Assembly (NCBI GenBank): GCA_964016885.1
Contig: OZ024740.1
Span: 193,502,001-193,566,000 of the forward strand
Source of the DNA: Eledone cirrhosa
Lineage: Eukaryota
DNA length: 64,000 bases
Direction of reading: 5' to 3'
This document shows positions 4,803 through 61,094 of the stretch, piece by piece. The position numbers and the translations under genes are program-made. How positions within the stretch are numbered: the first letter of the stretch is position 1; each line of letters opens with the position of its first letter. Below the pieces are notes generated by a model. That model made no database searches. It was not told the DNA's origin and worked only from the letters and a program-made list of their open reading frames with translations.

Positions 4803-6274
4803 ATATTAACAAATGGAAACTATATTTATAAAACCATTATACATATTTCAAGGGCCACCAAGGCAAACTATGGTGCGCTTTCATCAAATAAAATATAATA
4901 TAGGTTAGTTTTATAAATAAATATTGACATACCCTGAAAAAATGCAACCATTCTGGCTGGAATCTCCTGGTTTTATAAATGTAATTTCCATTTGTTAATA
5001 TATTGTATATTTACTCCAATAATTTGTTGAGTGCTTTATATCAGTTATAAAAATATTTTGCAACAAATTAAATATAACCTCTCTATATATATATATATTT
5101 AATATATATATGAGCGTGTGCGTTTGCTTGCATATGTTAACGTGCTCTCGTGCGTGTTTATATGTGTGTGTATTTGTATGTATACGCAAAAGGGACAAAC
5201 ACGATAAATAACATGCTGTGAACACTATAGATGTAGCTATTTATTAATGTTTTGTTTGACAATTTTTTGGGGAGGCATATATTACACGCACTCTCACACA
5301 CATACCCATAATATAGGTGACGCTTACTAACATTGAAACAAAAACACTAGACAAAATTCAGTCGTAGAATGACTCAGTTTAGAAGGTTTCAGGTATCTTT
5401 GACAAAACACTTTTGACACAACCAACCAAAAAATCAATATGAAATGGATTTTTTACCAGTAGCTCATTGAACTCTAACCGTTGCATGTTTTTTTTTCTTC
5501 CTTGACGAACCACACACCCTCCATAATATGACTGTATCTGTTTAACGTTACGTTACGATTTAGCATAAAAATACGTTAAAACAAGGTAATTGAAACATTA
5601 GATAAAACAGACACAGATGGTATTCCATACAATTGCACGGCACACGCGGGTGTGTGTCAGAGAGAGAGGGAGAGAGAGATGGAGAGAGAGATTGTATGTT
5701 AGAAAAAGTATATACGCATAGTAACAAAACCTCTCACAAACACATACGAATATATACACATATGGACGCTCATACATACAGGCAACCAATTACACAAAAA
5801 CACGTATATGTACAAGCTTGCGGTTATATAATGCATAATATAATAGTAGTTGAAAAAATTAATTCTAGAATAAAATCGGTTACAAACTGGGGTAATGTAT
5901 CGACCTTTCATACCAAACTCTATTATCTCTATATCTCTCTACTCATCATTCTATCTATCATTTGTACTCGATCTATCTATTTTTCCATCTCCTTAGCTAG
6001 CTTACAATTTACCTGCCAAATTATCTATCCATTTATATTGATCAATTTATGTATATTTACCAATATATCCATCATTGGACAAGAAAAACAACACTAAAGA
6101 CAACAAAGTATTAATCCAAACAGTAGTTTAAATATTGTTAGGTATGTAGATAGAGAGATAAATAAATAGAAAGAAAGAAAGATAGATAGGTAGATAGATT
6201 TTTTTTTACTATAAAACCCCGTCATATATTGACAGGTACTGTTAGAATATACATATATATATATATATATATAT

Positions 6275-6384
6275 GAACGAGTAGGACCCAAACGGCTGAG
6301 CTCAAGCCGTTTCGACGGCTAATTCTGAGTCCAGAATTAGCCGTCGAAACCGCTTGAGCTCAGCCGTCGGGGTCCTATTCGTTC
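6275..6384. repeat. Near-perfect palindrome built from the 3' half of a hammerhead (PLE pLTR fragment extends to about 6465)
   Basis: Arms of about 53 bp flank an AGTC loop (6328-6331). Each arm reads ...AGCCGTC-GAAAC-(G/C)GCTTGAGCTCAGCC-GT(C/T). Confidence 0.85.
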
Positions 6385-6461
6385 CTATTACCCACTCTAC
6401 TACCCTAAGTATTGAGTACTTTGGTGCGTTATGGTCCACCTGGTTCCTTACCACATTTCCT

Positions 6462-6532
<71 letters not shown>

Positions 6533-9349: not shown

Positions 9350-9592
9350 ATTCTGTTTAAAAGAGCATGTTAACACCGACTCCTCTTCCTTCAGCAAACA
9401 CATCATCAAATGTGGAAAGCGGGACAACAAAAGAACATTTAGTAAATCATCAAGAAACCAGCTTCCAGATGATTTCTCCCTAATGAAACAGTTTCAGTCC
9501 TGTAGAAGCCATTTCTATATTAAATATTTATACTCTGCTATGTATTGAGTACCTTCCTTATTGTAGTTACCCCTGATTGAACCCGGAATAAA
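9350..9592 (+). mobile_element. PLE fragment: GIY-YIG end fused to a hammerhead-containing pLTR
   Basis: KEHVNTDSSSFSKHIIKCG matches the 6.9-7.0 kb PLE. It is followed by GCTTC-CAGATGA-TTTCTCCCTAAT-GAAACAG-TTTCAGTC-CTGTA-GAAGC (9461-9509). Confidence 0.75.
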
Positions 9593-9804
9593 CATATATA
9601 TATATATGTATATGTGTGTGTGTGTATGTGTGTGTATATATATATATGTGCATGTGTTTATATGTATGTATATGTATATGTATATATAGATGTGTTTGTA
9701 TGGATGTATGCAGCACACATGTGGGCGTTTGTGCGTATGTTTGTTTTGGTGTGCAGGTGTGAGTAGGTGTGTATGTGCGCGATTATAAAGACCTGGCCAT
9801 TATG

Positions 9805-10001
9805 TATACTTTAACACAGCATGTTAACACAGCAACTTACAACATCCCCTTTCTTTAAATCCATCAACCGATGACCCCCGCCCATCCCAATCACCACTCT
9901 CTCCTTCCACAAGAAAATGTATAAATATCACCTTATTACTTGGACATTCGGCTTCCTGATGATTTCTCCCGAATGAAACAGTTCTAATAAATATATCTAT
10001 A

Positions 10002-10066
<65 letters not shown>

Positions 10067-10295
10067 ACATATATATGTATACATATATATATATTTATTT
10101 ATTTATTTAACATAGAACATTTAACATTCGGGAGAAATCATCAAGAAGCCGAATGTGCAAGTAATATGGTGATATTTATACATTTTCTTGTGGAAGGAGA
10201 GAGTGGTGATTGGGATGGGCGGAGGTCATTGGTTGATGGATTTAAAGAAAGGGGATGTTGTAAGTTGCTCTGTTAACATGCTTTGTTAAAGTATA
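9805..10295. repeat. Inverted pair of PLE pLTR fragments (9805-9985 / 10113-10295) around a (TA)n spacer
   Basis: The two ~180 bp arms are reverse complements; the ORF track gives near-identical peptides on both strands. The left arm ends in the HHR 5' part GCTTCCTGATGATTTCTCCCGAATGAAACAG. Confidence 0.9.
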
Positions 10296-10329
10296 TATAT
10301 ATATGTGTAAACATGTATATATATATTTA

Positions 10330-12057: not shown

Positions 12058-13355
12058 GTAGAACACTGGAAGGTGACATCCGTAGTGGTAGAACACTCAG
12101 TCCAGGTGACGAGTTAGATAGAAGTGGTTACTAAACAGCTAGTTCACCATACCGAGAAAAATTGTTTCACCTTGGCGGATCCTCTGCACGTAAAGCACAT
12201 GGTTATACGGAAGAGGAAGGACAGCCGTACGAACGCGCATGCGCAGAAACGATCACTTCACACAGGCAAAACTAAATTGCCACGGGCCAGAGGTGTAAGG
12301 GAGGTAACTGCAAAAGTCCGAAAGTTTCTAGTTGATAAGAAAATTATGATGTTGTTGTAATTCAATCCGGATCTTTGTAGTTATGTAAGAGGTGTTTCAA
12401 GACGTGTGGACAACGTGTGAAGAATACACTTCTCGTGTTTAGGCAATCACTATTGCGTAATCTCTTTAGAATATTTATTCGTTCACCAATACATAGTCCA
12501 CACGACGGAGTGCCCCTTGCGTATGGCTTGGACTTAGTGATGGCTTTCCATTGAATGGAGTAGTCTATACTTGAGTCCTTGAGAGACCATACGTGGCTCG
12601 TGAGTTTTGTGGATGAACGTGCTTCCGGGTACCTAAAGGTCGACTGGTGGTTCAGGAAGCGTTCCTTAAATCGGCCCTCCGACATACCCACATAGGGTTT
12701 GACCTCCTGTGGTTTGATTTTGTCGGTTGGAAGTGACCACAGCTTCATAAACTACGGCAAGTGTGTTCATTGCTGTTGAAGGGGACAACCTTCAAGCTTA
12801 CGGCAAGAGCACTCTGGTGGGGTGTTGCTCTTAGGGCTGTTGGTGATGTGGGCCTTCAGGTTCTTAGCGCTGGAGATGAGAACGAGATAGTTTGTCTATT
12901 GTTATGCTTTCTTTTCTTATTGCTGTTATTGTTAGTGGGAGAGTAAGTAATAGGATGCGAGAAGCCGCTGTTAGCTAACGCCGTGTTACAGTAGGGTGCC
13001 GCCCTGTCAAGGATAGCCTTATTAGAGGAGAGGTTTGAGATTCTAGTACTGATATTATTTACGAAGTTTCTAAAAACAGTGGGAGGGTGGCATGTGTTCT
13101 TGTGAATGTAATTGAGTTTTTCGTTTAGCTTATGGAAGGGTCTGTGGGTGTTTGTGCGAAGGTCTAAATTAATGTCTAAGAAATGTACGCTAGAGAGGTT
13201 GGTAGCTACTGTTATCCTAAGTCCTAACTGATTGAAGGTAGAATCTAAGTCTTTTTTAAATCGGTCGAGTTCGTGACCACTTTTATGGCTCGATGAGGTC
13301 AGTCCATAGTCGCGGTATATTCCCGTGTGGAAGTCCGGGAATCTAGCACGTAATA
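12053..13355 (-). mobile_element. 5'-truncated Penelope-like element (RT C-term, GIY-YIG, pLTR with HHR remnant)
   Basis: GIYRDYGL (YRDDGL-like), VHFLDINLDL and HPP motifs. ORF 12362-12748 has YVGMSEGRFKERFLNH...CGLCIGE. HHR remnant CAGAGGATCCGCCAAGGTGAAAC at 12151-12190. Confidence 0.9.
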
Positions 13356-13391
13356 TGTATCCTTTGACAGTGCTGGCGTAGGCGACTTGAC

Positions 13392-16534: not shown

Positions 16535-18679
16535 ATATAATAATAATTGCAATTTGCTTTCCTTAGGAAAGAGTACTACGTCCCTACAATTGTTTTACTG
16601 CTCTGAATCAGTTACATCTAATCTCTTCCCTCTCTCACACAGACACACACACTCTCTCTTCCACACACATACTCTCGCGCACGCACACACAGACAGACGC
16701 ACACATACACACACACACTCACAAATATATATGTACGTATGGGTTTACCGAACATTTATTATAATGTTCGCTTTGTTTGTAAACAAACAGACCGAATTAC
16801 GCCGTACAGTGTTGGGCAACCATCGTTGCCCTTTTGTTCAACACTGACAAAGGAACGATGAACTTGTTTCAAACTTATTAGCTATCGTCAGCATCGTATA
16901 CCTTCCTGTCAGATGATTGAACGTTTGAAAGTATATACTTTCCTTATGCAGATTAAAGTTTAAGCAAAGAATCGCTGCTTTCACCCTTAACGAGATCTTC
17001 TGAAGCTAACAAAGTCAATCTGTAAACGCAGAACTGGATATTTCAAAAAACGTTTCAACCGGAGGAAGACAAGAAGACGATATTTTGCTTCAACCTCTCT
17101 ATACAGGTTGAGGCCAATCTCTCGGTCGTTAATTACCTCGACGTTACCCTCAATTTATTCAATGGGTTGTATTACCCGTATAGAAAGCCGAATGATACGC
17201 TTAATTACATAAGTAAGCATTCCAACCATCCTGCCAGCATAACCAAGAACCTGGTAAGAAACGTTTCGTTGAGGCTTTCCCGTCTTTCCACCAACGAGCG
17301 CATTTTCAACGACCATTCCACTTATTACAATGAAGCTCTTGCTCGAAGTGGATTTGTCGATAAGCTAGCATATACAGAGTACGAAAATAGGCCTAGAAGA
17401 AATAGATCCCGTCGCATTTGTCGGTTTAACCCACCATATAATATGGAGGTGGCCACACCATTAGCTTAGATCTTTCTTTCCCTTATTACGAAGCATTTTC
17501 CCCCTACACATAAATATAGTAAAATTTTTAATAGAAATACTATTAAAATGTCTTACTCTACGACTCCTAACCTTGCACATAATATCACAGCTTCAAATTT
17601 AGCTAAACTACCTAGCCGTAGGAACACGTGCAACCCTGTAGTTAGTACTAACTGTAATTGTAGGAATCGCGCTGATTGCCCCCTATCCGGGAAATGCTTC
17701 TCTAGTAACGTTGTCTGCAAATGTAAGGTTGTAACACCCACGTCCCGTAGGGCCTACATAGGGCTAACCGCCAATAGTTTCAAGCAGCGTCTTTACATGC
17801 ATACCCATTCTTTTCGTTACCCTCTAAGAAGGAATATGACGTCACTTTCAGCTTATATCTGGAGTCTAAAAGACAACCACACCCAATATAAGTTACACTG
17901 GGAGATCCTAGCTAGGGCTAGATCGTATAACGGAAATAAAAGACCATGTGACCTCTGCGCCGCTGAGGCCCTGGAAATACTCTACGCCACAGACCACATC
18001 TTAAACAAAAAAATATGAGGCAATTTCGGCTTGTAAACATAAATTGCACAAAACTTTCCTGTATTACAGCCCCACGTTATACCCTAACGGATAGTACGAT
18101 CTATACGTGGATATTTTACGTCTTGATGTGGGAGCTAAGTATATGTTTTGTTTATTCCTTTACTTATCTGCATAGGTAAGTATATATTACCCGTATGTTT
18201 TGTGAAGGTATGTATACCTTCTCGTACGTATTTTTAATTGTTATGGCGTATAATTTTTATATTCTGGTATTTAGGGTTTGGCTATGTGTATACGGGAGTT
18301 TTGCGTCTGCGTGAGTATGCAGGTTCGTACGTATGGTGGGTGTGTGTATATGTGTACTTCTTGTTTTAGTTGACTTACGTCTCCGAACATTCGTGTATTT
18401 ATTGTAGGTATGTGTGTGTGCGCTTGTTATATACGTATTTATTTACTTATATACGTTTATATAATTATTTATTTATTTGTACACAAGCATACACACACAC
18501 ACACACACATATTTATATGTGCGTGGTTTTGTATACCTATGGTAAGGTTTTGCGTATGCTTGTGTATGTACGTACTTGTTTGCGTGTATGTATTTATTTA
18601 TTTCTATTACTTCTGTATTGTATTTATTTACTTTGTTCTTAACTCTGTAGCAGAGATTCATTTGGTCTCCTAGTTAGAA

Positions 18680-28611: not shown

Positions 28612-31600
28612 TGCTCAATGACATCAGATCACTAAACATAGATGTGGTGGCCATCAGTCAAACCAGAATCTCCGAGGCACGGGCCTTCGCACCGATCTTC
28701 GGCGGCTACGATGTATACGCATCTCCCAGCCGTCCAGGATCGGGGGGAGCGTTTGCCGTCCTTTTTCGGAGAGGCTTGGATCTCGCGATACGGGCCATAT
28801 TCCTGGACCCAGAAGGTAAGTCGGTGGTGCTGGACGTGACCGGCAGCGAAGGCAATGCTTTCAGGCTAGTAGGATGGCCAGATTTCTTCAGACGTCTAGA
28901 GACCTTTCTTGGAACGTCCCGCTCTTTAGTGTTAGTGGGCGACTGGAACGGTATCTTGGATGCACGCTGGGATCGTATGCGGTTAGTGGATAGGGGAGGA
29001 GGGTGCAAGAGCCTCACCAACCTGCTCATACGTTTTGAACTGTCTGACAGGTACCGACTGGATCACCCGATGTGCCAATGTGGACATGGACAAACCGCAT
29101 CGGGTCATCCAGATCGTATCTAGATAGGCTATTCTGCAGGGAACTAGATAAGGCTAGTATAAGTTGTACACAATTTAAAATAGTCGACTACACAGAACAA
29201 ATTTGTGATCTGTGAGATCGACATAGACAGACTTCATAGACAATGGCCTGGTTACTGGAAGCTGAACGCGTCTTCCCGGCACGCAAGGCCTACAGAGACC
29301 GGATTAGCGTATTAGTTAAGCGGGCGTTGACGGGAGCGGTCGTCAACAACAGGTGGTGTTTCGCCCTGAAAAGACCAATTAAAGTAGAGTTGATTAGGTT
29401 TAGCAAAGGAGTAGTTATAGAGGAAAATAGAGTAGAGGGAGAGCTAGTCAGAAAGCTAGAAGAGGCGTTTAGGACAGGCATCGCAACCGACGCGCTTGTG
29501 GCGAGATTGGCACTCGACCAATTCTTCAACGCAAAACACGAAGGCTTCGTTTTCAGAGCTAGAGCGCGTGCTCTGAAACACGAGGGGACAAACGCCGTCC
29601 AATGGGCCCGGGTGGCAGAGGCGCGACGTGGCAATAAAGCCACAATTCGGTCTTTGTCTGACCAAAAGGGGTGCGTGATGCTCGAACCCGAGCGGATGTG
29701 TGAAGCTTTTCAGCAGCACTTTGCTGAACTGTTCGGGAGCGGCGGCGGCCCGGATCGGGACATGGACTTCAGTGCATACCTCGACGGACTGCCTCTGCTC
29801 TTGACGACCGCAGCACAGTGTTGCGAAAAGCCAATGAGAGCTGGTGAAATACGGGAAGCGATGGCTAACTGCACAAGAGGTAAATCGTCAGGTATAGATG
29901 GTCTGCCCTACGAGCTTTATGCATTTATGCCACACTTGTTCGGTGACCTCTTGGCAGACGTATACTGCAACTGGCAGCAGAACGGGAGCATTCCCAGTTT
30001 TGTGAGCCGGGGAACAGTGGCGCTGCTGAGAAAAGACCCGAACAAGAGGGATGTTATTGATAATTCCAGGCCCATAACTCTGCAAAACGCAGAGTTCAAG
30101 ATTTTGGCCAAGGTGTTAGCAACGATGTTGGCACTTGTCGTCAAGGGTCTGGTGGGAGAGGCGCATACATGCGCCATCCCGGACAGATCCATACACGACA
30201 ACCTCCACCTCATGCGATACATCATAGAGAGGGTGGTTAAGGAACCTGGCAAGGGTGGGGCCCTGATCAACTTGGATCAATCCAAAGCATTCGATAGGGT
30301 CGACCATCGGTACCTGGCGGCGGTCCTAGGGGCAGCCGGTTTCGGGCCCGTTTTCAGGTGTTGGATCGCAGCAATGTACAGCGACATCTGCTCAGTTGTG
30401 AGGGTGAACGGTCACCTGTCGCAGCCGTTCAGCATCATGCGCTCAGTCCGCCAGTGTTGTCCCCTCTCGTCCCTCTTGTACGTATTGACTCTCGAGCCGT
30501 TACTGCACAAACTGGGGGCGATGAGGGGCGTCCCACGCGAACTAGGAAATCCGAGTCGGCTTATGCTGACGACGTCACCGTGGTGGTGTCGAGCACCAGA
30601 CACGTTCAGATGCTCGGTACCGCACTCAAGGAATACGAAACGGTGACAGGAGCAAAGATAAACCAGGAAAAGTCGGTGGGCTTGCAGCTAGGCACCTGGA
30701 GAGGCAAGTCCATGGCGTCCGACAGCGTCATGGGGCGTTGGAGGGACGGACCGGCTAAATTGCTCGGGGTCTGGTTCGGACCAGACTTCCAAATGGAGAA
30801 ACACTGGAACGAGGTGACGAGCAGCGTGGCCTCCCTCACCCAGAAATGGGCTGAGAGGAAGCTGTCCCTGAAAGGCCGGGCGGAAGTGGCGAATGCGTAC
30901 ATCGCATCCGTCATCTGCTACCGCCTCACCGTCATCCCTTGCTCCAGCCCAACTCTCACCAAAATGGAGCGCCTCCTCTTCCGCTTTTTGTGGAAGGGAC
31001 GCGCTCCCATGTTCAGACGATCCATTTGCTCTCAACACCCGTTGCGTGGAGGACTGGGCGTGCCATGGCTGATGATGCGCAAAAAGCGCTGTAGCTGCGA
31101 CATCTCTGGTGCTTTCTTGATGGTGAACGGGTGTGGTCGCCGTTCGCCAGGCACATTTTCCCACAGCTCGTCTCCTTGACGGAGCTGCAGTCCTGGGTCA
31201 GAAAAAGACCGAGGGATAGCGCTTGGAAACTGGAATGTCTCCAGGCGCTCACTGCCCTCTCCCAGCTGGGCACCAGTATCGGTGGAACATCCACCTCGGC
31301 GTTCTATAGAGGTCTAGGGAAGAGCGACGAGATTCTCGGAGAGATCCTGGGCGTCAAAGAATATCAGCTGTTTGCTCTCGTCTATGGATAACTTCCAAAA
31401 ATCCCTGGCCTGGCAGTGCTACCGGGGAGCGCTGCCGGTTCGAGATAAGCTCAACAGGCACGGAAGTGCGTCAGCCGAGCCTGCGTGAGATGCGCGCATA
31501 GCGACGAAACCGTTGTGCACGCACTCGTTCAGTGCCCGAACATTACTGACTTGTGGAGCTATGTCGAACAGTTGCTGTCACGTGTGGGACTGATCCGGTT

Positions 31601-35200: not shown

Positions 35201-37972
35201 GGCTTTAGCAATAGAGCAAAATAGAGCAGAGGGAGAACTAGTTAGAAAATTAGTGAGGCGCTTAGCAAAGGCATCGCGACCGACGTGATTGCGATGAAAT
35301 TGTCCCTTGACCAATTCTTCAATGCAAAGCACGAAGGCTGCGTTGTCAGAGCTAGGGTGCGTGCTCTCAGACACGAGTGGACGAAAGCCGTTCAATGGGC
35401 CCGAGTGGCGGAGGCGCGTCGTGGCAACAAAGCCACGATCCGGTCTTTGGTGGACCACGACGGGCGCATGCTACTCGATTCCGGGCAAATGTGTGAAGCT
35501 TTTCAGCGACACTTCGCTCAGCTGTTCGGGGGCAGCGGTGGGCCGGGTTGAGGGATGGACTTTAGTGTCTACCTCAACGGACTGCCGCGGCTCTCGGCCA
35601 CTGAGGCGGAGTGTTGCGAAAAGCCGATAACAGCCGCTGAGGTCCGGGATGCAATGACTGGCTGCACAAGGTGTAAATCGCCTGGTTTGGATGGTCTGTC
35701 CTATGAACTTTACGTACAGATGCCAGACTTGTTCGGATGCCTCTTGGCGGACGTCTACTGCAACTGGCAACAGAACGGGAGAATTCCCAGCTCTGTGAGC
35801 CGAGGAGCGGTGCCACTGCTGAGAAAGGATCCGAACAAGGGGGAAAACATAGATAATTTCAGGCCCATAATTCTGCTAAACACAGAGTTAAGGATTTTGG
35901 CCAAGCTGCTAGCAAAGAGGTTGGCGCTTGTCATTGGTGGTCTGGTGGGAGAGGCGCAGACATGTGCCATTCCCGACAGATCCATCCACGACAACCTTCA
36001 CCTCACGCGATACATCGTAGAGAGGGTAGCTAGGGAACCTGGGACGGGTGGGTCCTTGATCAATTTAGATCAGTCGAAAGCTTTCGATAGATTAGACCAT
36101 CGTTACCTAGCCGCAGTCCTCAGGGCGGCTGGCTTTGGGCCTGTCTTTAGAGGCTGGATCGCTGCCATGCACAGCAACATCTGCTCTGTGGTGAGAGTGA
36201 ACGGTCACCTTTCGGAACCGTTCAACATCATGCGCTCGGTCCGCCAAGAATGTCCTCACTCGTCCCTCTTGTACGTATTGACTCTCGAGCCATTACTGTA
36301 CAAATTGGAGACGTTGAGTGGCGTCCCGCGCGAACTAGGATGCGGAAGTTCCGCGTCAGCATATGCGGACGATGTCACCGTAGTGGTGTCGAACGCCAAA
36401 CACACCGAGGCGATCGGCGCTACACTAAGAGAATACGAAACGGTGACAGGAGCAATGATCAACCAGGAAAAGTCAGTGGGCCTGCAGCTCGGCACCTGGA
36501 GAGGCAGGTCCATGCCGTCCAACAGCGTCGTCGGACGCTGGACGGACGGTCCGGTTAAATTACTAGGGGTCTGCGTCGGTCCGGACCTCCAGACGGACAA
36601 AAACTGGGACAAGGTGACGAGCAGGGTGGCTTCTCTCACCCAGAAATGGGCCGAGGGGAAGCTATCCCTGAAATGTCGAGCGGAGGTGGCTAACACGTAC
36701 ATCGCGTCTGTCATCTGCTACCGCCTGACCGTCGTACCTTGTCCTAAGCCCCGCCTGACTGCGCGGAAGCGTTTGCTTTATCGCTTTTTGTGGAAGGGAC
36801 GCGCTCCGATGGTCAGTCGGTCCATCTGCTGTCAACACCCGCTACGTGGAGGGCTAGGCATGCCGTGGCTGATGATGCGCAGACATGCGCTCAGGATACG
36901 ACATCTCCACCTCTTCCTCGACGTTGATCACGTGTGGTCGCCGTTTGCTAGACACGTATTTCCCCAGCTTGTTTCCTTGACAGAGCTGCAGTCCTGGGTC
37001 AAGCGAAGACCGAGAAGGAGCGCCTGGAGACTGAAATGTCTTCAGGCGCTCACAGCCCTCGACCAATCGGGCAATGTGATCGGTGGAAACTCCATCTCGG
37101 CGTTCTATAGAGGATTAGTGGAGGGGAAGAGCGACGACGTACTTGGGGAAAATCTAGGCGTCGACCAAAATCAACTAGCCAATCTCTTCGGAAGAACTGT
37201 CGGGCCGGGACCTATGGACAACATCCAGAAATCTCTGGCCTGGCAGTGCTACCGAGGAGCCTTGCCAGTTCGGGATAAACTCTACAGGCATGGAGGTGAG
37301 TCAACCGAGCATGTCCGAGATGCGCGCAGGGTGACGAAACCGTCCTGCACGCACTCGTCCAGTGTCAGAGCATTGCTGACTTGTGGGTTTATGTCGAACA
37401 CCTGCTGTCGCGTGTGAGACGGATCCAGCTATCAGCTGAGTCCATCGTGAGTATTGCCCCGCCTTCTTCCTTTAGCCGGGAAAGAGCAGGCAGTTCTTAT
37501 CTGTCTGGTGGCCATGGCGAAAGAGATAGTATGGTGGACACGTTTGAAAGGGCTGAAGACGAGCACTTACCTCTTCGGTGATGCCCTGACTATCTTTTTC
37601 AAATTTCATTCGAAAAGCAAAATCAGGGTAGAGAGGGAAGTGCACTCTTCCCAGCATTTTGTTGAAAGATGGGTGAGAGAAGCAAGTATGGCCCGAGTGA
37701 ATGGGCCTACTCTGAGTACGTATCTGTAAATTAAAGGTGGAAAACTGGGAGAGGGCACTTGCCTTGGCGGTCAGGGTCACTGTGGCCTTTTACTGGGCTT
37801 TCTCCACAAATGTCCCTCGGAAGTCTCCCCGCTATTGGGGAATTTTTCTTTGTTATTTTATTTCAACCTCTGTTTTTTTTACACGCAGAAATGCCCATTT
37901 GTACCGTCCTGTATTGCCCTGTACTGTCCTTAATGTCTACTTTATGTAAACCCTTGTGGTTAATAAAGAAAA

Positions 37973-41755: not shown

Positions 41756-41945
41756 TGTGAATTGGCAGTATCGGTAGAGGGTTGAACGCCATGCTTTCTA
41801 GCATAGTTACGTCCCTTTACAGTCTGAGTTCAAATCCCGCCGAGGTTAACTTTGCCTTTAATCCTTACGGGGTCGATAAAATAAAGTACCAGTAATGTAC
41901 TGGGTAGTTGCTGGCCTTGTGCCTAAAGTAGAAACAATTATTATT
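41756..41945 (+). mobile_element. tRNA-derived SINE, full length, (ATT)n tail
   Basis: TGGCAGTATCGGTAG...GAGTTCAAATCCCGCC...GGCCTTGTGCCTAAAGTAGAAACAATTATTATT. Confidence 0.9.
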
Positions 41946-41972
41946 ATTATATTATAGTATTATATTATGATA

Positions 41973-42096
41973 TTCTGAGTTCAAATCCCACCAAGGTTAA
42001 TTTTGCCTTTCATCCTTACGGGGTCGATAAAATAAAGTACCAGTAATGCACTGGGGTAATAGCTGGCCTTGTGCCAAAAGTAGAAACAATTATTAT
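41973..42096 (+). mobile_element. tRNA-derived SINE, 5'-truncated adjacent copy
   Basis: CTGAGTTCAAATCCC...GGCCTTGTGCCAAAAGTAGAAACAATTATT. Confidence 0.9.
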
Positions 42097-42189
42097 ATTA
42101 TAGTTTAGATTTGACATCGTTTAACCTAAACATTTTGAGAGAGTTTAGAGATACAGCAACAATAATTATTTTGGTGCTGTTGTTGTTTC

Positions 42190-42749: not shown

Positions 42750-45700
42750 GAATGCCATGGTTGACGGAGGCTCGGCTCTGTAAGGTATTGTAAATTTTGA
42801 CCGCTATAACAATTGTAAATTGTTTAAACCTTTAACCAAACTGTAGACAAAAACACCCTCCTCCTCGTGAGAGGGGTCTTTCTGCCCGTTAATTTGCCCT
42901 TCGGGGTTAAATAACCGCTTGTTGGGGGATTGTGCGCAATATCTATTTTAAACCAAAAAAAACATGGCTACGAAAAAGAACTTTCACAAGTCACTCCCAC
43001 TCATTCCGTCCTCTCCTTCCTCAATCGTCATTACAGCAGAGAGAAGATTGTCTCTCTCCCTCCCTTCTCTAAATGTGTCTCTTTCCCTCCCTTCTCTTTC
43101 GCAAGCGACGCCAGTAAAGAAAAATAGTTTACAAAATAACGTGCAAATCAAGGAACATTTCTCCACGAAGACGACAACGACGAAAAAGATGTGCGGGAAA
43201 TACGAAAACCCATCTCATTCGTCTGACGTCATGAATAATAGCAGTAGCAGCCGTAATAACAGCAGCAGCAGCAACAGTGACAAGGAAAACAACAGTAGCA
43301 GCCGCAACAGCATCAGCAGCAGCATAAACAACAACAGCATTAGCAGCAGCAGCAACAACAACAACAACCACAGCAACAGCGGCGGCGGCAGTAGTGGTAG
43401 TACCTGCAGCAACAACAAAAGTAACAGCAGCTCTGACGACGACAACAACAACAGCAGCAAAGAAAAACCAATCTCGTTTGCAGGTATCGCAAAGAACCTG
43501 GAAACGATCCTCATAACAAATGAGGAATTAGAGGAAGCGAAGAAGATGGTGTCGAAAACCGGACACCGAGCAATCTGCAAGGCAGCCGAAAAATGTTTCG
43601 AAACCCAACAGCACTGTACTGTCACGTACCGTACAGTAAGCACAAAATCCCGTAGGGTTGAAAGAGCCACAGAGGCTCAAATACAAAAAGCCTTATGGTC
43701 TGTGTGGCAGCGGAAAACGCATATCACCCAAGGCAAGAAATATGCCACCGTAGACGTGCTTTTTGCCACACCCCAGGAGGCAAAGGCTCAATATTTAGTG
43801 ACCCTAAAGAGCGAGGAAAATGTCGTAAGAAGGCGCAAACGCAGAAGCAACGCATCGTCGCCTTCGAAAAGGGAGGAAAGAAATGAAAAAAGGGTAAAGG
43901 CTAGTGCAAAGAGACTCACAGCAGCAACACCACCAACACTATCATCACCCACACTAGCACCATCATCACCACCGGCGACAACGCCACCGCCAACAACAAC
44001 AACGCCTTCAATACCACCACCACAAGCACCAACATCGCAAACACAACAAAACACACACACCCGGAAACAACGACAAGAAAATAGCAGAACCACACCCCAC
44101 CCCCAGAAAAACAAATGCACGGCAATGAATACACACAACAAGAAACTAATGACTTACATAATTGAACACACAGACATTTCACAGCACGACTACATAATAC
44201 CAGCACCAATAAAAACGCCAACGTACATAAGACTGGTAAATATAGCACAGAAACAATACACAAACATTAAAACGAAATTCCCCAACGCAGTTGGTGATTT
44301 CAGAGACCTAGGAGGGACTCTCAACCGGAGAGTATATTCGGACATACTCATAGAAGAGCCGACGACAAGCCGAAGGGAAGATTCAACGGTCCCTTCGCCA
44401 GACGATCAAGTGAAAAGAGATGGAGAAACCATCATTCCTCTATGAAAAGTACGGTAAGTGGTCTTTCCCATCTTTTCCACTCCATTTTAAAAATGACCTC
44501 ACACAGAATAGGCAGCATAAATGCGCGTGGCTTGGGGTCGTCATGGAAGCAGGGTCACCTCCACAACGACCTCAGGTCACTAAACATAGATGTAGTGGCC
44601 ATCAGCGAGACCAGAATCTCCGAAGCACGGGCCTTCACACCGATCTTCGGCTGCTACGATGTGTACGCATCTCCCAGCCGTCCAGGATCGGGGGGAGGAT
44701 TAGCTGTGCTTTTTCGGAGAGGTTTGGATCTCGCCATACGGGCTATCTTCCTGGACCCAGAGGGTAAGTTGGTGGTTCTGGACGTGACCAGCGGAGACGG
44801 GCAAGCTATCAGACTAGTGGCCGTCTATGCTCCGACAGGAGCAGGGCGGCCTGATTTCTTCCGGCGTCTGGAGAACTTTCTTGGAACGTCCCGCTCTTTA
44901 GTGTTAGTGGGTGACTGGAACGGGATCTTAGATGCACGCTTGGACTGTGTGGGATTAGCGGATAGGGGTGGAAGGTGCAAGAGCCTCACCAACCTGCTCA
45001 GGCGTTTTGAACTGTCTGATAGGTACCGATTGGATTTCCCGAATGTGCTAATGTGGACTTGGACAAATCGCATTGGGTCATCCAGATCATATCTAGATAG
45101 AGCATTTTGTAGGGAAATAGATAGCTCTAGCATAGGCTGTCCACAATTCAAGATAGTCAGCTACACGGACCACAAATTCGTGATCTGTGTGCTTGACTTA
45201 GATAGGCTTCACAGACGAGGACCCGGCTACTGGAAGCTAAACGCGTCCTTACCAGCGCGCAAGGCCTACAGACACCGGATTAGCGAACTAGTTAAGCGGG
45301 CGTTGACGGGGGGGCCATCGTTAACAACAAGTGGTGGTTTGCTCCGAAAAGAGCGATTAGAATAGAATCCATTAGGTTTAGTAAGGCTTTAACAATAGAG
45401 AAAAATAGAGCAGAGGGAGAACTATTTAGAAAATTAGAAGAGGCGCTTAGCAAAGGCATCGCGACTGACGTGCTTGCGGCGAAATTGGCCCTGGACCAAT
45501 TCTTTAATGCAAAGCACGAAGGTTGCGTTGTCAGATCTAGGGTGCGTACCCTCAGACACGAGGGGACGAAAGCCGTTCAATGGGCCCGAGTGGCGGAGGC
45601 GCGTCGTGGAAACCAAGCCACGATCTGGTCTTTGGTGGACCACGACTGGCGCATGCTACTCGATTCCAGGCAAATGTGTGAAGCTTTTCAGCGACACTTC

Positions 45701-46949: not shown

Positions 46950-49900
46950 CAGCTGCATTTATCTTGCCTTATGTTCATACGAGTTATCACCAAGTCACAA
47001 CCAGTGACCTCAATAGACCACAAGGTCCGCCATGTTCAAGAAAGAACATACATACTCACACATGCATCTTTAGGTGTTTAGACTTGTGATGTACTTATAT
47101 TGACAGAATCTTCCTTAGTATATGGGCAGTTCCCATTAGTACTATCTTTTGTATTTTTCCTATACGCGGGTTTCCTGGGATTTGCGATAAGTAATCATTA
47201 GACCCCTTAGGTATCATTCCTAGAGCGCCTACAACCACTGGTATTGTTTTAGTTCTCAATTTCCACATTTTTCCAATTTCTATCTCCAGGTCCTTATACT
47301 TGCTCAATTTTTCAAATGTTTTTATAGATACATTCTTGTCTATTAGAACGGACATATCAATTAGCAGGCATACCCTCTTTTTAAAGTCCTTCAATATTAT
47401 ATCAGGTCTATTTGCATCTATTTTTCGGTCTGGTTGGATGTTAAAGTTTCACAAGATTGCGATGTGATCTTTTTCAAGTATGGGAGGTGATTGATGCTCC
47501 CACCAATTCTTTTGATGAGGCAGGTCAAAATGCTTACACATTATCCAATGTATGTATTGTGCAGCTCTGTCATGCCTGTTTAGGTATTCGGTTGGATCTA
47601 TAGGACTGCACATTGAAATTATATGGTCAATGGTCTCTGGTTGTTTTTTACATATACGGCATAATGGGCTGCATCCATTTTTATTATGTTGGCTTGGTAA
47701 TTTTTTGTTGGCAAACACTGATCTTGTGCTGATATAATCAGTCCATCAGTCTCCGATTTCAGTCCAGAGGATGCCAACCACTGATGGGTTAAAGTTTTGT
47801 CAACATCAGGATTGTTAGCTCGTTATGGGTATTTTCCATACAGTGGCTTTTCTTGCCATTTCTTGGCCAGTTTCTGTAGCAGTTCTTTCTTTGCAGTTAC
47901 TTTTACCTGCTTTGCTTTTTCTGTGTTTTCCATTTCAGCAGTAAATGGGACTTCTGAAATTTGTACTCCATTACTGTATTTTTGTGCATCATTTGTAATG
48001 GAATATGATCTTTTGATGCATTCGTGTTTCAAAACGAGTTTGATCATCCAATCATGTGATTCCCTTAGATATGTAGATAATCCAATTGTTGCAGTTTTCA
48101 ACGCAATGTCTAACTGGATTAACCCACGTCCTCCTTCTTTCCTAGGGAGATATATTCTATCTGTATCTGCCTTAGGGTGATGCATTCTGTGCATGGTTAA
48201 GAATTTTCGAATTTTTGTATCGAGCCTACATATCTCTGTGCTTGACCAGTTGATGACATTGTAACTGTAGGTTACTACTGGTAGTGCAAGCGTGTTTATG
48301 GCATCGATCCTATTCTTTGCATTCAATTCCGATCTTAAGATTGCTCTTACTCTGCGGTAACATTCCTTCCTTATCCTTTCCCTCATTGTCGAGTGCTTGA
48401 TTCCGTCTCCTTCACAAACACCTAGATATTTGTAAGTTTCCTCTTGATCAAGTTCTCTTATCACATTCCCCCGATCAAGATTAATGTCTGAACTCTTCAG
48501 CAGCTTTCCTCTGGTGAACGTTGCATTGGCGCATTTATCTAGTCCAAACTCCATTTTAATATCATCACTGAACTGCTCCACAGTGGATAATAGCCCTTGT
48601 AATTCTTCATCATTTTTTGCAAATAGTTTCAGGTCATCCATGTAGAACAAGTGATTAATGGTTTTGTCATAGACTTTATATCCATGCTTTGTTTCATTGA
48701 GCATTTTACTTAATGGTATAAGTGCGATGCAGAATAAAAGCGGTGATAAAGAGTCACCCTGAAAAATTCCACAATTAATATTAACTTCTCCATCTTCCAG
48801 TGATTTTGTTTCACTAATCAAAAGGAGTGCCGTTTTCCATGTCTTCATACTGAATGACAAAAACCTCCTGACAACGGGAGATATTTTGAAAATCTCTAAA
48901 CATTTTTCAATCCAACTGTGTGGCAAACTATCGAATGCTTTTTTATAATCTATCCAAGCAATTGATAGATTTTTGTGTCTATTATGACAATCTTCCAGTA
49001 TCATTTTGTTAGCCAAAAGCTGATCCTTACAGCCATATGAGCCTTGTTTACACCCTTTCTGCTCAATGGGAAATAGGTAATTTGTTATCAGGAGGTCAAA
49101 TGTTATACATTGTGGTCAAGCAAGTTATCGGTCTGTAATTTTGGGGATTGTTTGTTTCATCATTCTTCGGAAGCAGGAATGTAATGCCGTTAACTAGCGA
49201 TGATGGTATCTTTTCTGGCTCGTTAACTATTTCATTGTAAAGTTGGGCTAACAGCTCATGAGATTCTGTGAAGGCATTTATCCAAAAATTTTGTATTTTG
49301 TCTTTTGCTGGGGATTTCCATTTGCTGGTTTTTCTTAGAGCCAAACGCAACTGTTCAACTGTATTTGTCTGTCTATCCATGCGGCATGTATATTATGAAT
49401 TTTTTCTTCGGCCCTGATCTTTTCCCAGAATTCTTGCACTTTCTTCTTGGGTGGTATTAATTTAGCAGTTATTGTTGACGTACCAATTTTTCTGTAGAAG
49501 TTTCTTTGGTTCTTTTTGAACATATTATTGTCCTTATAGCATCTAGATCGTTTTTCAAAGCGACTTATACGAGCAGCTTTGGCCGACACTTTTTGCTTGA
49601 TTATTTCTTTCAGCATGTCTATGTCACTTGTTGATTTTATACTGTACTTTCTTTTCAATTTTCTAAGTTTAGTTTGTTTAACATGTTCACCTACTTTATA
49701 GTTTGTTAAAATTTCTATGTCAGATCGGAGAAGGTTTATTTGGCGATTGATGTTCTCTTGCCAAGTAGATTTCTTGTGGGAATTCCTTTGTTTTTTCATC
49801 TCCATAAGTGAGTGGTGACTTTAGCCGATGCATAATAGAGATGATTTAAATCAGTAATGTTTAGTTTGTTTGTGATGATAATGCTTTTGAGAATTATGTT

Positions 49901-57169: not shown

Positions 57170-60100
57170 GCCAACGATCATTGGTATTTCATCGCAAAGA
57201 ACGAATGCTGGTGACACATGATCTTGGATCAAAATGCGATCAATCAACCGGTGCTAGCATTTGACACGGAAGAGTCAAGGTGGTAGCGTAAAGAAGTTCA
57301 GCTGAGGAGAAACCCAAATCTGTGTTAACAGCAGAACGACAACCAAGAAGCACGATTGGCAAAAAATTCGGTCCAACTTTGCGGATCGGGAGTAGCGCAG
57401 AGTGCTGCTTTCAACTGTCTGTGAAACCTCTCCACGATTCCGTTGGAGGCTGGCTGATAGCTGGTCGTATGAATGTGATGAGCACCCAAACGTCGTGATA
57501 TTTCATGAAATAAGGAAGCCTCGAACTGACGTCCCCGATCCGTGGTTATTTTAGAAGGAACACCAAAGCGAACAACCCAATTGGAAATGAAAGCTCGGGC
57601 AACGGACTCGGCTGTTATGTCCACTAGGGTTATGGCTTCAGGCCACCGAGAGTAACGATCAATACAGGTCAATATATATGTGAACCCACGTCTAACGGGC
57701 CAAGGACCAACAATGTCCAAATGAATGTGACGGAAACGGGCGTCCGGCGGGCTGAATTTACCAAGAGGAGCGCGAACATGCCGATGAACCTTTGAGCGCT
57801 GACACTGCAAACAAGAACGTGCCCAACCGGTGATTAAACTACGCATGTTAGGCCAGAAAATTCGGGCCGTGATGAACTTCACCGTGGCAGCTATGCCGGG
57901 ATGCGACAAGGAATGAAGTGCATCAAAAATGGTACGCTGATGACAATCTGGAACAAGTGGTCTGGGTGAGCCGGTAGAAATATCGCAAAGAATTTTCTCT
58001 TCAGCAGAGGGAAGAGGTAAATATTCAAATTTACAGCAGGAAAACTGGGTAGAAGAAGTATCCAGAGAATCCATAAAGGTTGGTCAGTCGCAATGGCAAC
58101 CAAATCAATATGTGCAGGAGACGCAAGGAAGCACACAGGGAGTTGAGACAGTGCGTCCGCGGGTACGTTGGCAGCTCCAGCTATATGACGAATGTCACTG
58201 GTGTACTGGGAGATGAAATCCAAATGCCTGTATGCCTGGGGAGATTAATTGTCGGACTTGGATTGAAGAGCGAATGTGAGTGGTTTATGGGCAAGAAGAT
58301 GGTGGAAGTGTCTCACAGCAAGATAAACTGCTAAAGGCTCTCTGTCAAAAGTACTGTAACGTTGCTCTGCTGGTTTTAGTTGGCATTAGAAAAACGCCAG
58401 TGGTTGAAACTGGTGGTTGATTGTATGTTGCAAGACTGCTCCGACAACATGAACGACCGCATCGACAGTTAAGGATAGCCTCGCGTTCGCAAAAGGATGA
58501 ACCAGAAAGGAAACTTTAGCTATTTCGGACTTGACGGATTCGAAAGATTGCAACGCATCGGCAGAAAGTGAAATGGGAGCATCTTTCTTTTTCGCAGCCT
58601 TTAAAAATTGTGTCAAGGGAAACAACTTTTCCGCACAGTTAGGAATGAAACGACGATAAAAGTTGATTAATCCTAAGAAATGATGTAACTGCCTCAATGA
58701 GGTGGGGGGGGGGATTCGCTGAATCTCTTCCACCTTAGATGGTAAAGGTCGAATGCCTTCTGAAACTATCAGATGTCCTAGGAATTCCAGTGAAGCTGTA
58801 CCAAACACACATTTAGCTGGGTTGATTCTGACCTGGTACGATTGAAGACGTTGAAATAACTGAGATAGATGTTGATGATGATGTTCAGTTGTATCGTTGG
58901 CTATTAGGAGGTCATCCACATAAGCAAACACGAAATCCAATCCATGCATGACTTCATCGATAACACGTTGGAACGTGCTAGAGGCATTCCGCAAACCAAA
59001 AGGCATGGACAGGAATTCAAATGAACCAACGGAGGTGGTCACGGCTGTCTTTGGTATATACTCTGGATTCATTGGTATCTGGTGGTATGCACATATTAGA
59101 TTTATTTCGGAAAATATCGTGCATCCATGAAGAACGGATGAAAAATCCTGTAGGTTGGTTAAAGGATAAAGATCAGGTGTGGTGATAGCGTTAAGTCTTC
59201 GGTAATCTCCTACCGGTCTAAAATCCGCGTCACACTTTCGAGCCAAGTGCAGTGGGATGCCCATGGGCTGGTGGAAGGTCGTATTAGACCAAGCTGGAGC
59301 ATGTGCTCGAACTCGTCTCGGGCTTTTTTTAGTCTATCCGGAGCCAACCTTCGTGGACGAGAGAAAATAGGTGTACCAGTCGTTGTAATGAAGTGTTGAG
59401 TCGAGTGGACTGCCTGGGTAGGTTTAAATGACATCTACCAAAATTGAATAGTGCTGTTAGAAACCCGCACCGAAGATAGGTTGAAGTAGGTCGGCAATGA
59501 AGAAAATCCATTTAAAATCTCGTCGCCAAGCTAGGTCCAATGATAAATATATCTGTCCATAGGTTTTTATAGGAGACTGGTTCACTGCATACAACGAAAT
59601 GCTGGAAAAAGTTGGCCTGGTAGAGCTGAATTGTAAGGGCCAAATACTGCAACTTGATCCTGTGTCGATCATGAATGACTTGTTTGAGACTCAGTCTCTG
59701 ATAAAGAAAGCACGATAAGGTGAAATGTTAAGGGAGAGGTCTGCCGTGCCCAGGCTCTCCAAATTTAGTTTTCCGATGCCCCCAAAAGAGCAGGGCTTGA
59801 TACAATGATGTGCCTTATCACTGAAACACGCATGGTACCAACACAAAGAAGAACTGCTGGCTGGGGATTTGGTACGTCGGTGAGAAGAAAAAGACCGACT
59901 TCGTGAACGCCGCCTATGTGGCTCTCGATCACGACACAGTTTAGCTACTTCACGTGTTAACCCGTCAATAGTTCTCAACATGGCTTCCTCACTAGGTGAG
60001 GCAGGCTGTTTTTTAAGAATAGAAGAAGCAATTTCCGAATCAAACGAGGTAGGTCCCCTAGAAAATTCCATAATCCTGTCCGCAGAGGCAGCAATTTGTT

Positions 60101-61094
60101 CTATAGAACTGTTGTCAACCATATACGCCAATGTGGTTTGCACATTGGTTGGCAATCGGGAGAAGAATAAGTTCTTTACGAAGGAACTATCTTCGGGCGC
60201 AGCATCGGTGAGTTCTTGGATACGCCTCAAAAATTCTGAAAGTGTTCTGTCCCGCAGATTTTCATCTTCCAATAATGAACGAAATCTACTCTCAGACGAC
60301 CTACTGTTCCTACGCAGTACCTCTATCTTCAGAGACTCATAGGAGGCGCCTTGTGGACGGTCTGTTATGATGTCATTTACGGTAGTTGCCAGCAAAGCGC
60401 GAATTCCACTAATCAGCACGTGTAGTTTTTGCTGTGCTGCCTGTACTCCGTTGGCAGCAGAATACGCATCTAGCTGGGCAAACCACAATTTAGCATCGCC
60501 AGAATACCCGGTAACGATGTGTTGCTCATAATTGTGACACGGTGGATGCTGCGCGAGGAATGCTTATAGACAAAACTTGGTCGGATTAACAGAAGCGAGA
60601 GAGATGATTTTCAGGAGTAAATTTTATGTTCAAACATCGGGTCACCGCTTTAGTGGATTCGTCATAGGGTTATGTACTCCAGTAAATACCATCGCATGCC
60701 AACCACTAATTTAATTTGAAATAAGATATAGAAGAACTTTTATGTAATTTTCCTTCGTTAGAATTATCTCTCTACATTCGAAGTAATAATTGAAGCATAA
60801 CGAATATCTCAAAACGAGTATCAATAACAATTTCTATTTATTGTCGAACGTCTATTACAATTTGGTAGTAAAACGTACCTTGTTACATGATAGAAGTGTA
60901 ATACTGAAATACAAGATATGATTAGAAAAAGCTTAACATATTTGTGCTCGGTGTGGTCAGTTCGAGAGCCTGCTGCCAAATAGGGAGATTGCCCTTTTCT
61001 CTTTCTTTTATAATACCTGGAACGTAAGTTCAAGAAATGTTCCAGAAATTCTACTGGAGGTAACTCTAGCTACTTCCCTTTATCTAGAGAGTGC

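Follow-up and report, generated by a model that had tools for sequence, protein, structure and literature searches.

The region studied here is a stretch of 64,000 bp of the Eledone cirrhosa genome (GCA_964016885.1, contig OZ024740.1, positions 193,502,001 to 193,566,000; hereafter the window), in which positions 6275-6384 form a palindrome of two 53-bp arms, the right one at 6332-6384, with 4 mismatches and a loop of four bases (Table 1). Its perfect inner helix is 19 bp long, including the 14 bp pointed out in a preliminary description, and the fold has a z of -16.8, equalled by 0 of 200 shuffles. By comparison with the family majority, the 4 arm mismatches are private to this copy. Counting from +1 at A6328, the right arm contains GAAAC (+19, at 6346), stem III and GTC (+39 to +41, at 6366-6368) of a hammerhead ribozyme, a layout matching the Hydra hammerhead table in the accessible part of PMC8557442, File S2. 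CUGANGA is absent from the window copy, which lacks the 5' core half and has therefore an incomplete catalytic core, and an Rfam search with this copy returned no hammerhead match, only weak microRNA look-alikes. In the place of the missing half there is an inverted copy of the downstream sequence, as already described, but the palindrome is only a part of the insertion, since the earlier limits left out the tail (+59 to +137). The full order is (TA)n, inverted copy, direct copy, tail and (TA)n. G6327 can be read in two ways, as the final base of the inverted arm or as an extra G preceding +1. Judging from its sequence, a Hydra-clade Penelope-like element (PLE) gave rise to the hairpin as a stub insertion, and the insertion itself has an ordinary PLE build.

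Table 1. Components of the insertion, in window coordinates
Feature	Position	Strand	Basis or remark
Left (TA)n target tract	6253-6274		Sequence; 96 of the examined inverted arms enter TATATATA directly past +58
Inverted tail-less pLTR copy, +57 to +5	6275-6327	-	Outer end is the fixed tail-less 3' terminus of the family
AGTC, 5' end of the direct copy and putative start (+1) in the parent loop II	6328-6331	+	Clustering of arm ends, extra G and, in natural copies, a TATA-like box 29-31 nt before it
3' strand of natural stem II	6332-6345	+	GAATTAGCCG at 6334-6343; natural partner CGGCTATT absent from the window copy
GAAA core half, stem III with self-complementary loop, GTC	6346-6368	+	Predicted cut 6368/6369
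Stem I 3' strand (GGGGT...GTTCC); +58 is the tail-less terminus	6369-6385	+	Sequence and family termini
79-nt PLE tail, on a single arm only; leads to the ORF in full-length copies	6386-6464	+	Family comparison
Right (TA)n target tract	6465-6530		Sequence

A genome search with the hairpin gave 981 candidates, 30 loci of them at 98-100% identity, mostly of the same build with a centre that varies in each copy. Exact patterns of tail-bearing arms matched 13,418 times genome-wide (7,784 + 5,634), a lower bound on the number of copies, and a tail-only pattern with one base filtered matched 21,178 times. The family has two 3' ends, at +58 and at about +137, and since both run into (TA)n also in raw reads and contigs of other samples they are not an assembly artefact; the tail-less one is also found on direct full-length copies. 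The sequence past the tail in a tandem copy led to full-length elements; in the parent element (L139) the unit measures 3,533 bp and its open frame, 774 codons long, is intact. Read from its sequence, the motifs QFDIES, YRDD and VIY...YIG point to a reverse transcriptase (RT) with a C-terminal GIY-YIG in a single ORF. The nearest protein-atlas clusters (0.96-0.99) have HTH_animal, GIY-YIG and RVT_1 on some members, and a Pfam scan and a PDB search with this ORF returned no match. The features of EN+ PLEs are present: a pLTR, partial tandems, an inverted 5'-truncated copy and a one-sided tail. With the parent element and its pLTR recovered, the earlier proposal of an origin from a PLE pLTR with a hammerhead-type motif is borne out, as is that of a (TA)n target, seen on both flanks of the window copy and in copies of the family.

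The assignment to the Hydra clade comes from motifs, with the likeness to published Hydra proteins judged by eye. In the accessible text of Craig et al. (2021, PMC8557442, section 11), this clade of C-terminal EN+ PLEs is marked by DKT, an RW motif, a CxCx5C linker, the lack of CCHH, CxxC and CxH; the parent ORF has SDKT, LRWR, CNCPDGSIC, one Cys between VIY and YIG (no CCHH), CNLC and CKH. The (TA)n target, the hammerhead near the 3' end, the inverted 5'-truncated copy and the one-sided tail are also shared. The N-terminus of the ORF resembles Hydra-1_Obim by eye, but the family is not Hydra-1_Obim itself, since the ribozyme differs. Compared with the clade as described in the same text, our family has a 3.5-kb unit with a 1.2-kb 3' UTR, a U3-A8 or C3-A8 core instead of CUGANGA, a long loop II with a promoter-like site, a tail of 79 nt against 30-40, and mostly stubs. 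Head-to-tail units of ~257-280 bp without the ribozyme core were found at L054, L063/L064 and L083-L085, and at these three separate loci they join the same spot just within the ORF start to the pLTR at about -5, -26 and -22. A non-LTR retrozyme was considered and rejected, since the window copy is head-to-head and the tandem units seen start 3' of the core.

For the position of the inversion axis, all pattern matches in the first 54.86 Mb of contig C1 were taken, giving 151 copies (106 mini palindromes, 20 minis without the standard inverted arm and 25 long ones) in a set that demands intact +5 to +23 on the tailed arm. A tail-anchored search free of this demand gave arms starting at -6 to +7 in 55 of the first 100 matches listed, at +8 to +58 in 32 and past -6 in 13, counted by eye; several of the counts by eye cover the first 100 matches listed, all on contigs C1 and C2. 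Where arms end at +1 and the next base is unambiguous, it is G in 18 of 23 and A in 5 of 23, and in 85 solo arms placed directly on (TA)n AGTCC is preceded by G in 15, A in 4, C in 10 and T in 56 (by eye). Only G occurs in neither the template nor the target, so it is G that we count as untemplated, T (56/85) being uninformative. A jump to TTGAGT of the tail as the source of this base was rejected, since there is no TTG among the 15 solo G cases. The untemplated 5' G of LINE-1 and SVA insertions was interpreted as a copied cap (PMC4859970, as accessible); the same G would also arise without a cap if RT added an untemplated C.

In 58 of 60 natural copies a TATA-like word begins 29-31 nt before +1, and the sequences TTAGTC, TCAGTC and TCATTT near the start resemble what we take to be the initiator consensus. 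One ORF-bearing copy (L073), joined to an inverted stub, starts at the +1 region. That a start site lies within PLE pLTRs is known (PMC8557442). The +1 at AGTC is likely a capped transcription start inside loop II, and there are faint signs of a second one at -4. A start at this position would leave RNAs without the 5' half of the ribozyme, which would be why that half is missing from the stubs. Long T runs (A runs on the cDNA) extend the junction arms in L002, L024, L057, L110, L152 and L222, and T follows in each of the 17 arms that end at -3, possibly by RT slippage or tailing. A sharp peak of read ends near +8 in RAD runs, with a depth step, was discounted because AATT is found there, most likely a restriction site.

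We consider it probable that each stub results from two reverse transcriptions on opposite target strands, which run off the RNA 5' end and are joined head to head. RNA polymerase II would begin the PLE RNA at +1 inside loop II, the RNA would be capped, and the G would be a copy of the cap. Priming would take place by internal initiation at the pLTR-ORF junction, near the RNA 5' end, at +58 for one strand of the cut (TA)n and at +137 for the opposite one, and both cDNAs would run off the RNA 5' end after ~58 and ~137 bases. They would usually derive from the same RNA or RNP, and host end-joining would unite them head to head, making the centre. A start at +1 with priming at +58 and +137 would explain why there is a palindrome, why only one side has a tail, where the extra G comes from and why half of the core is missing. 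For another PLE, PMC11167929 describes initiation in vitro from two internal sites, with both cut strands being extended.

The other route to be weighed is that of a single cDNA snapping back at the RNA 5' end, not at stem II, and copying itself, with the tail-less end produced by an endonuclease cut and the centre scrambled by later deletions. Self-priming was proposed for head-to-head PLE junctions (PMC3846280), and the tail-less end lies at TATT, resembling the ATT cut motif of PMC11167929, both as given in the available parts of these papers. Both arms belong to the same subfamily in 85 of 90 pairs, with 24 expected by chance, so that the two arms mostly share one RNA or RNP as their source, or else one was copied from the other, and self-copying predicts the same. 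Junctions of the window type also exceed their mirror images (368 against 197 matches, 1.9:1). In the minis the tailed arm reaches further 5' in 60, the tail-less arm in 20, and both are equal in 26, a difference that is partly ascertainment, since the search demanded +5 to +23 on the tailed arm; that bias does not affect the 368:197 ratio, and the process is therefore asymmetric, with a possible contribution from snap-back. The junction of the window copy itself fits either route.

It is the mirror junctions that argue against self-copying, since in them +1 to +4 is present on the tail-less arm but absent from the tailed one, and thus neither holds all of the other. Even with all overlap credited to the tailed arm, the tail-less arm extends further 5' in 18 of the 106 minis (2 of which may be point changes), so these, like the 197 mirror junctions, have tail-less-arm bases missing from the tailed arm, with the tail on the tailed arm alone. 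Among the long copies, the tail-less arm is further 5' by hundreds of bases in L042 and L044; in L042 the direct arm goes to -90 and the inverted one to -1348, a difference of more than 1.2 kb, which a self-copying cDNA would hardly give. In L043 the direct arm reaches -357 and the inverted one -47, and L148 has arms of two subfamilies, again at odds with one cDNA. Contigs and reads of other samples show tail-less arms ending near +1 joined to points within the tail. The junctions of the 106 minis have overlaps of 1-4 nt in 50, blunt joins in 13 and insertions of 1-52 nt in 43, some copied from the arms, as end-joining would leave. From these counts, the sequences argue for two separate cDNAs over snap-back, and we regard the single-cDNA origin as unlikely. 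The snap-back of a nascent cDNA put forward in the preliminary description thus fails for many junctions, which cannot arise in that way, while its view that the inversion formed at insertion is supported.

The RNA end at +1 could also result from processing, either by splicing at TTTAG or by nuclease trimming, rather than from transcription initiation. The TTTAG ending at +2 resembles a splice acceptor, as a pyrimidine tract followed by YAG, and introns in the 5' UTR of PLEs are mentioned in the accessible part of PMC8557442. However, most arms retain the AG, sometimes with the T run, no common upstream exon was found, the TATA-like spacing recurs in two families, and the start of the sister family described below has no such acceptor among the matches listed. 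We find this explanation distinctly unlikely.

The preliminary description had placed the pivot on the hammerhead itself, the nascent cDNA snapping back on stem II. In uninverted copies the order is ACCCC, core, GCTCGGCTATT, a loop of ~35 nt, AATTAGCCG, TC and GAAAC, and natural stem II is formed by GAATTAGCCG pairing with CGGCTATT, ~35 nt upstream, which closes the long loop. GACGGCTAATTCTG is nothing more than the right arm's reverse complement. The 14-bp helix is real, but since natural copies pair with a different strand it represents the stem II 3' strand duplicated in inverted orientation and not stem II, whose natural partner is CGGCTATT and not the left arm. CUGANGA was expected to precede GACGGCTAATTCTG in intact copies; a genome-wide pattern search for this arrangement gave 0 matches, an outcome that the preliminary description had itself named as refuting its account, and a looser search for upstream CUGANGA gave 11, of which 7 are coincidences at junctions and 4 are chimeras involving other elements. 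In L032, L034, L036 and L037, other hammerhead-bearing families are joined to the 3' half of this PLE family; L036, where a complete-looking ribozyme was rebuilt from two families, was rejected as an intact ribozyme since it is a chimera with another family.

In 61 distinct natural pLTRs the core is TTGAGAA (23), TTGATAA (18), CTGAGAA (16) or other (4), with 0 of 61 canonical CUGANGA and 41 of the U3-A8 type, a hammerhead covariant described in PMC4209133 (as accessible). Stems I-III can all form in the parent pLTR, and for just 1 of 4 copies the natural fold is also the one predicted as the minimum. The same core covariation and paired motifs on opposite strands are found in the U3-A8 min-HHR of Schistosoma Cercyon (Cervera and de la Pena 2014, PMC4209133, in its accessible part), whereas here a 6-bp stem III can fold as a monomer and the putative start would split the ribozyme. 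The 16 pLTRs with a C3-A8 mismatch core (e.g. L042, L048, L140) are predicted to be inactive, and their subfamilies still made many copies.

A sister family with the same stub build and canonical CUGAUGA provides a comparison. Its core is kept in 16,766 arms, and 88 of the first 100 matches listed start within ~12 nt 5' of CUGAUGA (by eye), the search pattern having required the core, so that pivots inside its stem II could not appear. In 5 copies TATAAATA precedes the start by 29, 30, 30, 33 and 37 nt, and L258 starts at the sister axis and runs into an ORF 51% identical to that of the first family. Several sister arms also carry the extra G (uncounted). Across both families, the main axis follows TATA+30 and not a helix. 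The tail word TATTGAGYAC is common to both families and to a published Hydra element, being a candidate protein-binding signal. Three copies of this Hydra-like sister family with its hammerhead are found in the window, at 9458-9594 (+), ~9822-9995 (+) and ~10120-10296 (-); the last two lie tail-to-tail across a (TA)n tract and both keep the TATAAATA box.

Pivoting on the ribozyme helices is thus contradicted, the axis being in the 3' part of loop II, not at the stem II apex, in the first family and 5' of the whole ribozyme in the sister. A snap-back on stem II would agree with an axis that here lies near the stem II 3' strand, with the few copies centred on the natural AAAATTTT of loop II, and with a minor class pivoting at the ribozyme cut. 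However, there is no CUGANGA ahead of the left arm, the natural 5' strand and loop are not retained in the centre, the arms stop beyond the stem and not at its base, and the extra G is left unexplained, all of which makes it very improbable.

A weaker form of the idea survives in that small class, as the data suggest. The predicted ribozyme cut is between +41 and +42, and 8 of the 32 arms starting at +8 to +58 among the first 100 matches listed begin at +40 to +43 (p = 0.003). Arms starting at +41 or +42 gave 749 pattern matches, of which 64 of the first 100 listed are really truncated there (by eye). The class comprises palindromes with one extra base between arms both stopping at +42, as well as solo arms on (TA)n, and would amount to ~480 copies, about 2%, against a rough background of ~120, and CG overlap may explain part of it. 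These ends suggest that cut RNAs exist and are copied; under the two-cDNA mechanism, RNAs cut by a complete ribozyme likely yield this minor class folding at the cut.

The least credible possibility is that the hairpin is itself mobile, as a MITE or from an inherited palindromic master: thousands of similar short copies lie in TA and the arms of the 30 best BLAST matches (L001-L030) differ at one site, but this difference is an artefact of ranking by likeness to private mutations of the window copy, 80 parsed copies have 53 distinct centres, the unusual ones all single, 11 of 12 recurring centres occur in at least 2 subfamilies, and the repeat is not terminal, the 79-nt tail leading into an RT-type ORF. 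Among these 80 copies, we found no unusual centre common to many unlinked copies of one subfamily. The hairpins thus show no sign of spreading as units, contrary to the MITE-like mini-elements envisaged earlier, and the palindrome is not the fixed TIR of a DNA transposon, the alternative named in that same description, since the repeat is non-terminal and the interior not fixed. The (TA)n context makes any target-site duplication unreadable. For annotators, such hairpins should be taken as dead by-products and not as MITEs or ribozyme switches.

Beyond the two-cDNA mechanism, we tentatively propose, being slightly more inclined to doubt than to accept it as a whole, that the junctions record RNA 5' ends. 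A dimeric PLE protein would prime both strands, and internal initiation near the cap would normally yield stubs, with read-through or tandem transcripts needed for long copies. The cut-site class would be the first in vivo trace of cleavage by a PLE hammerhead (the U3-A8 variant) and of retrotransposition of the cleaved product. In a literature search that left subscription journals mostly outside, no statement of the start-site or two-cDNA reading was found. The reading bears on questions open in the literature, namely the origin of PLE head-to-head repeats and of the one-sided tail, and hammerhead cutting in vivo. The family supplies tens of thousands of junctions able to separate the models, and exact start and cut sites are predicted.

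The closest experimental parallel is the in vitro TPRT of PAc, a Poseidon element (Frangieh et al. 2024, PMC11167929, as far as accessible), in which RT starts at two sites inside the RNA, at the pLTR-ORF junction and on either side of the tail, while the target is AT-rich and both of its strands are cut and extended. That part of the study reports no reads at the ribozyme cut, whereas here genomic copies pile up at +1 and less at the cut; the joining of cDNAs and the inversion point are not treated there. The Penelope head-to-head pLTRs of Adineta vaga (Arkhipova et al. 2013, PMC3846280) likewise have an inverted pLTR, a tail, junction palindromes and TATA with an Inr-like motif. In the available text they are explained by self-priming on an antisense template, while our counts favour two sense-templated cDNAs. 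With LINE-1 (PMC4859970, in the part accessible) our copies share an extra G readable as a copied cap and an inversion from two primings, but twin priming inverts the 5' part of one copy, whereas here both arms start 3' and are head-to-head duplicates.

Several other retroelements are found in the window. Remains of other Hydra-like ORFs are located at 17077-18012 (+), 52% identical to P0001, and at 12395-13356 (-), 33-39% identical to it. An LTR-type retroelement with integrase, RT and RNase H occupies 57325-60563 (-), and LINE-type RT or endonuclease frames are found at 29240-30646, 35552-37417 and 44298-45365 (+) and at 47823-49115 (-). At 41823-42102 there is a 151-bp repeat in two tandem copies, presumably a SINE-like element.
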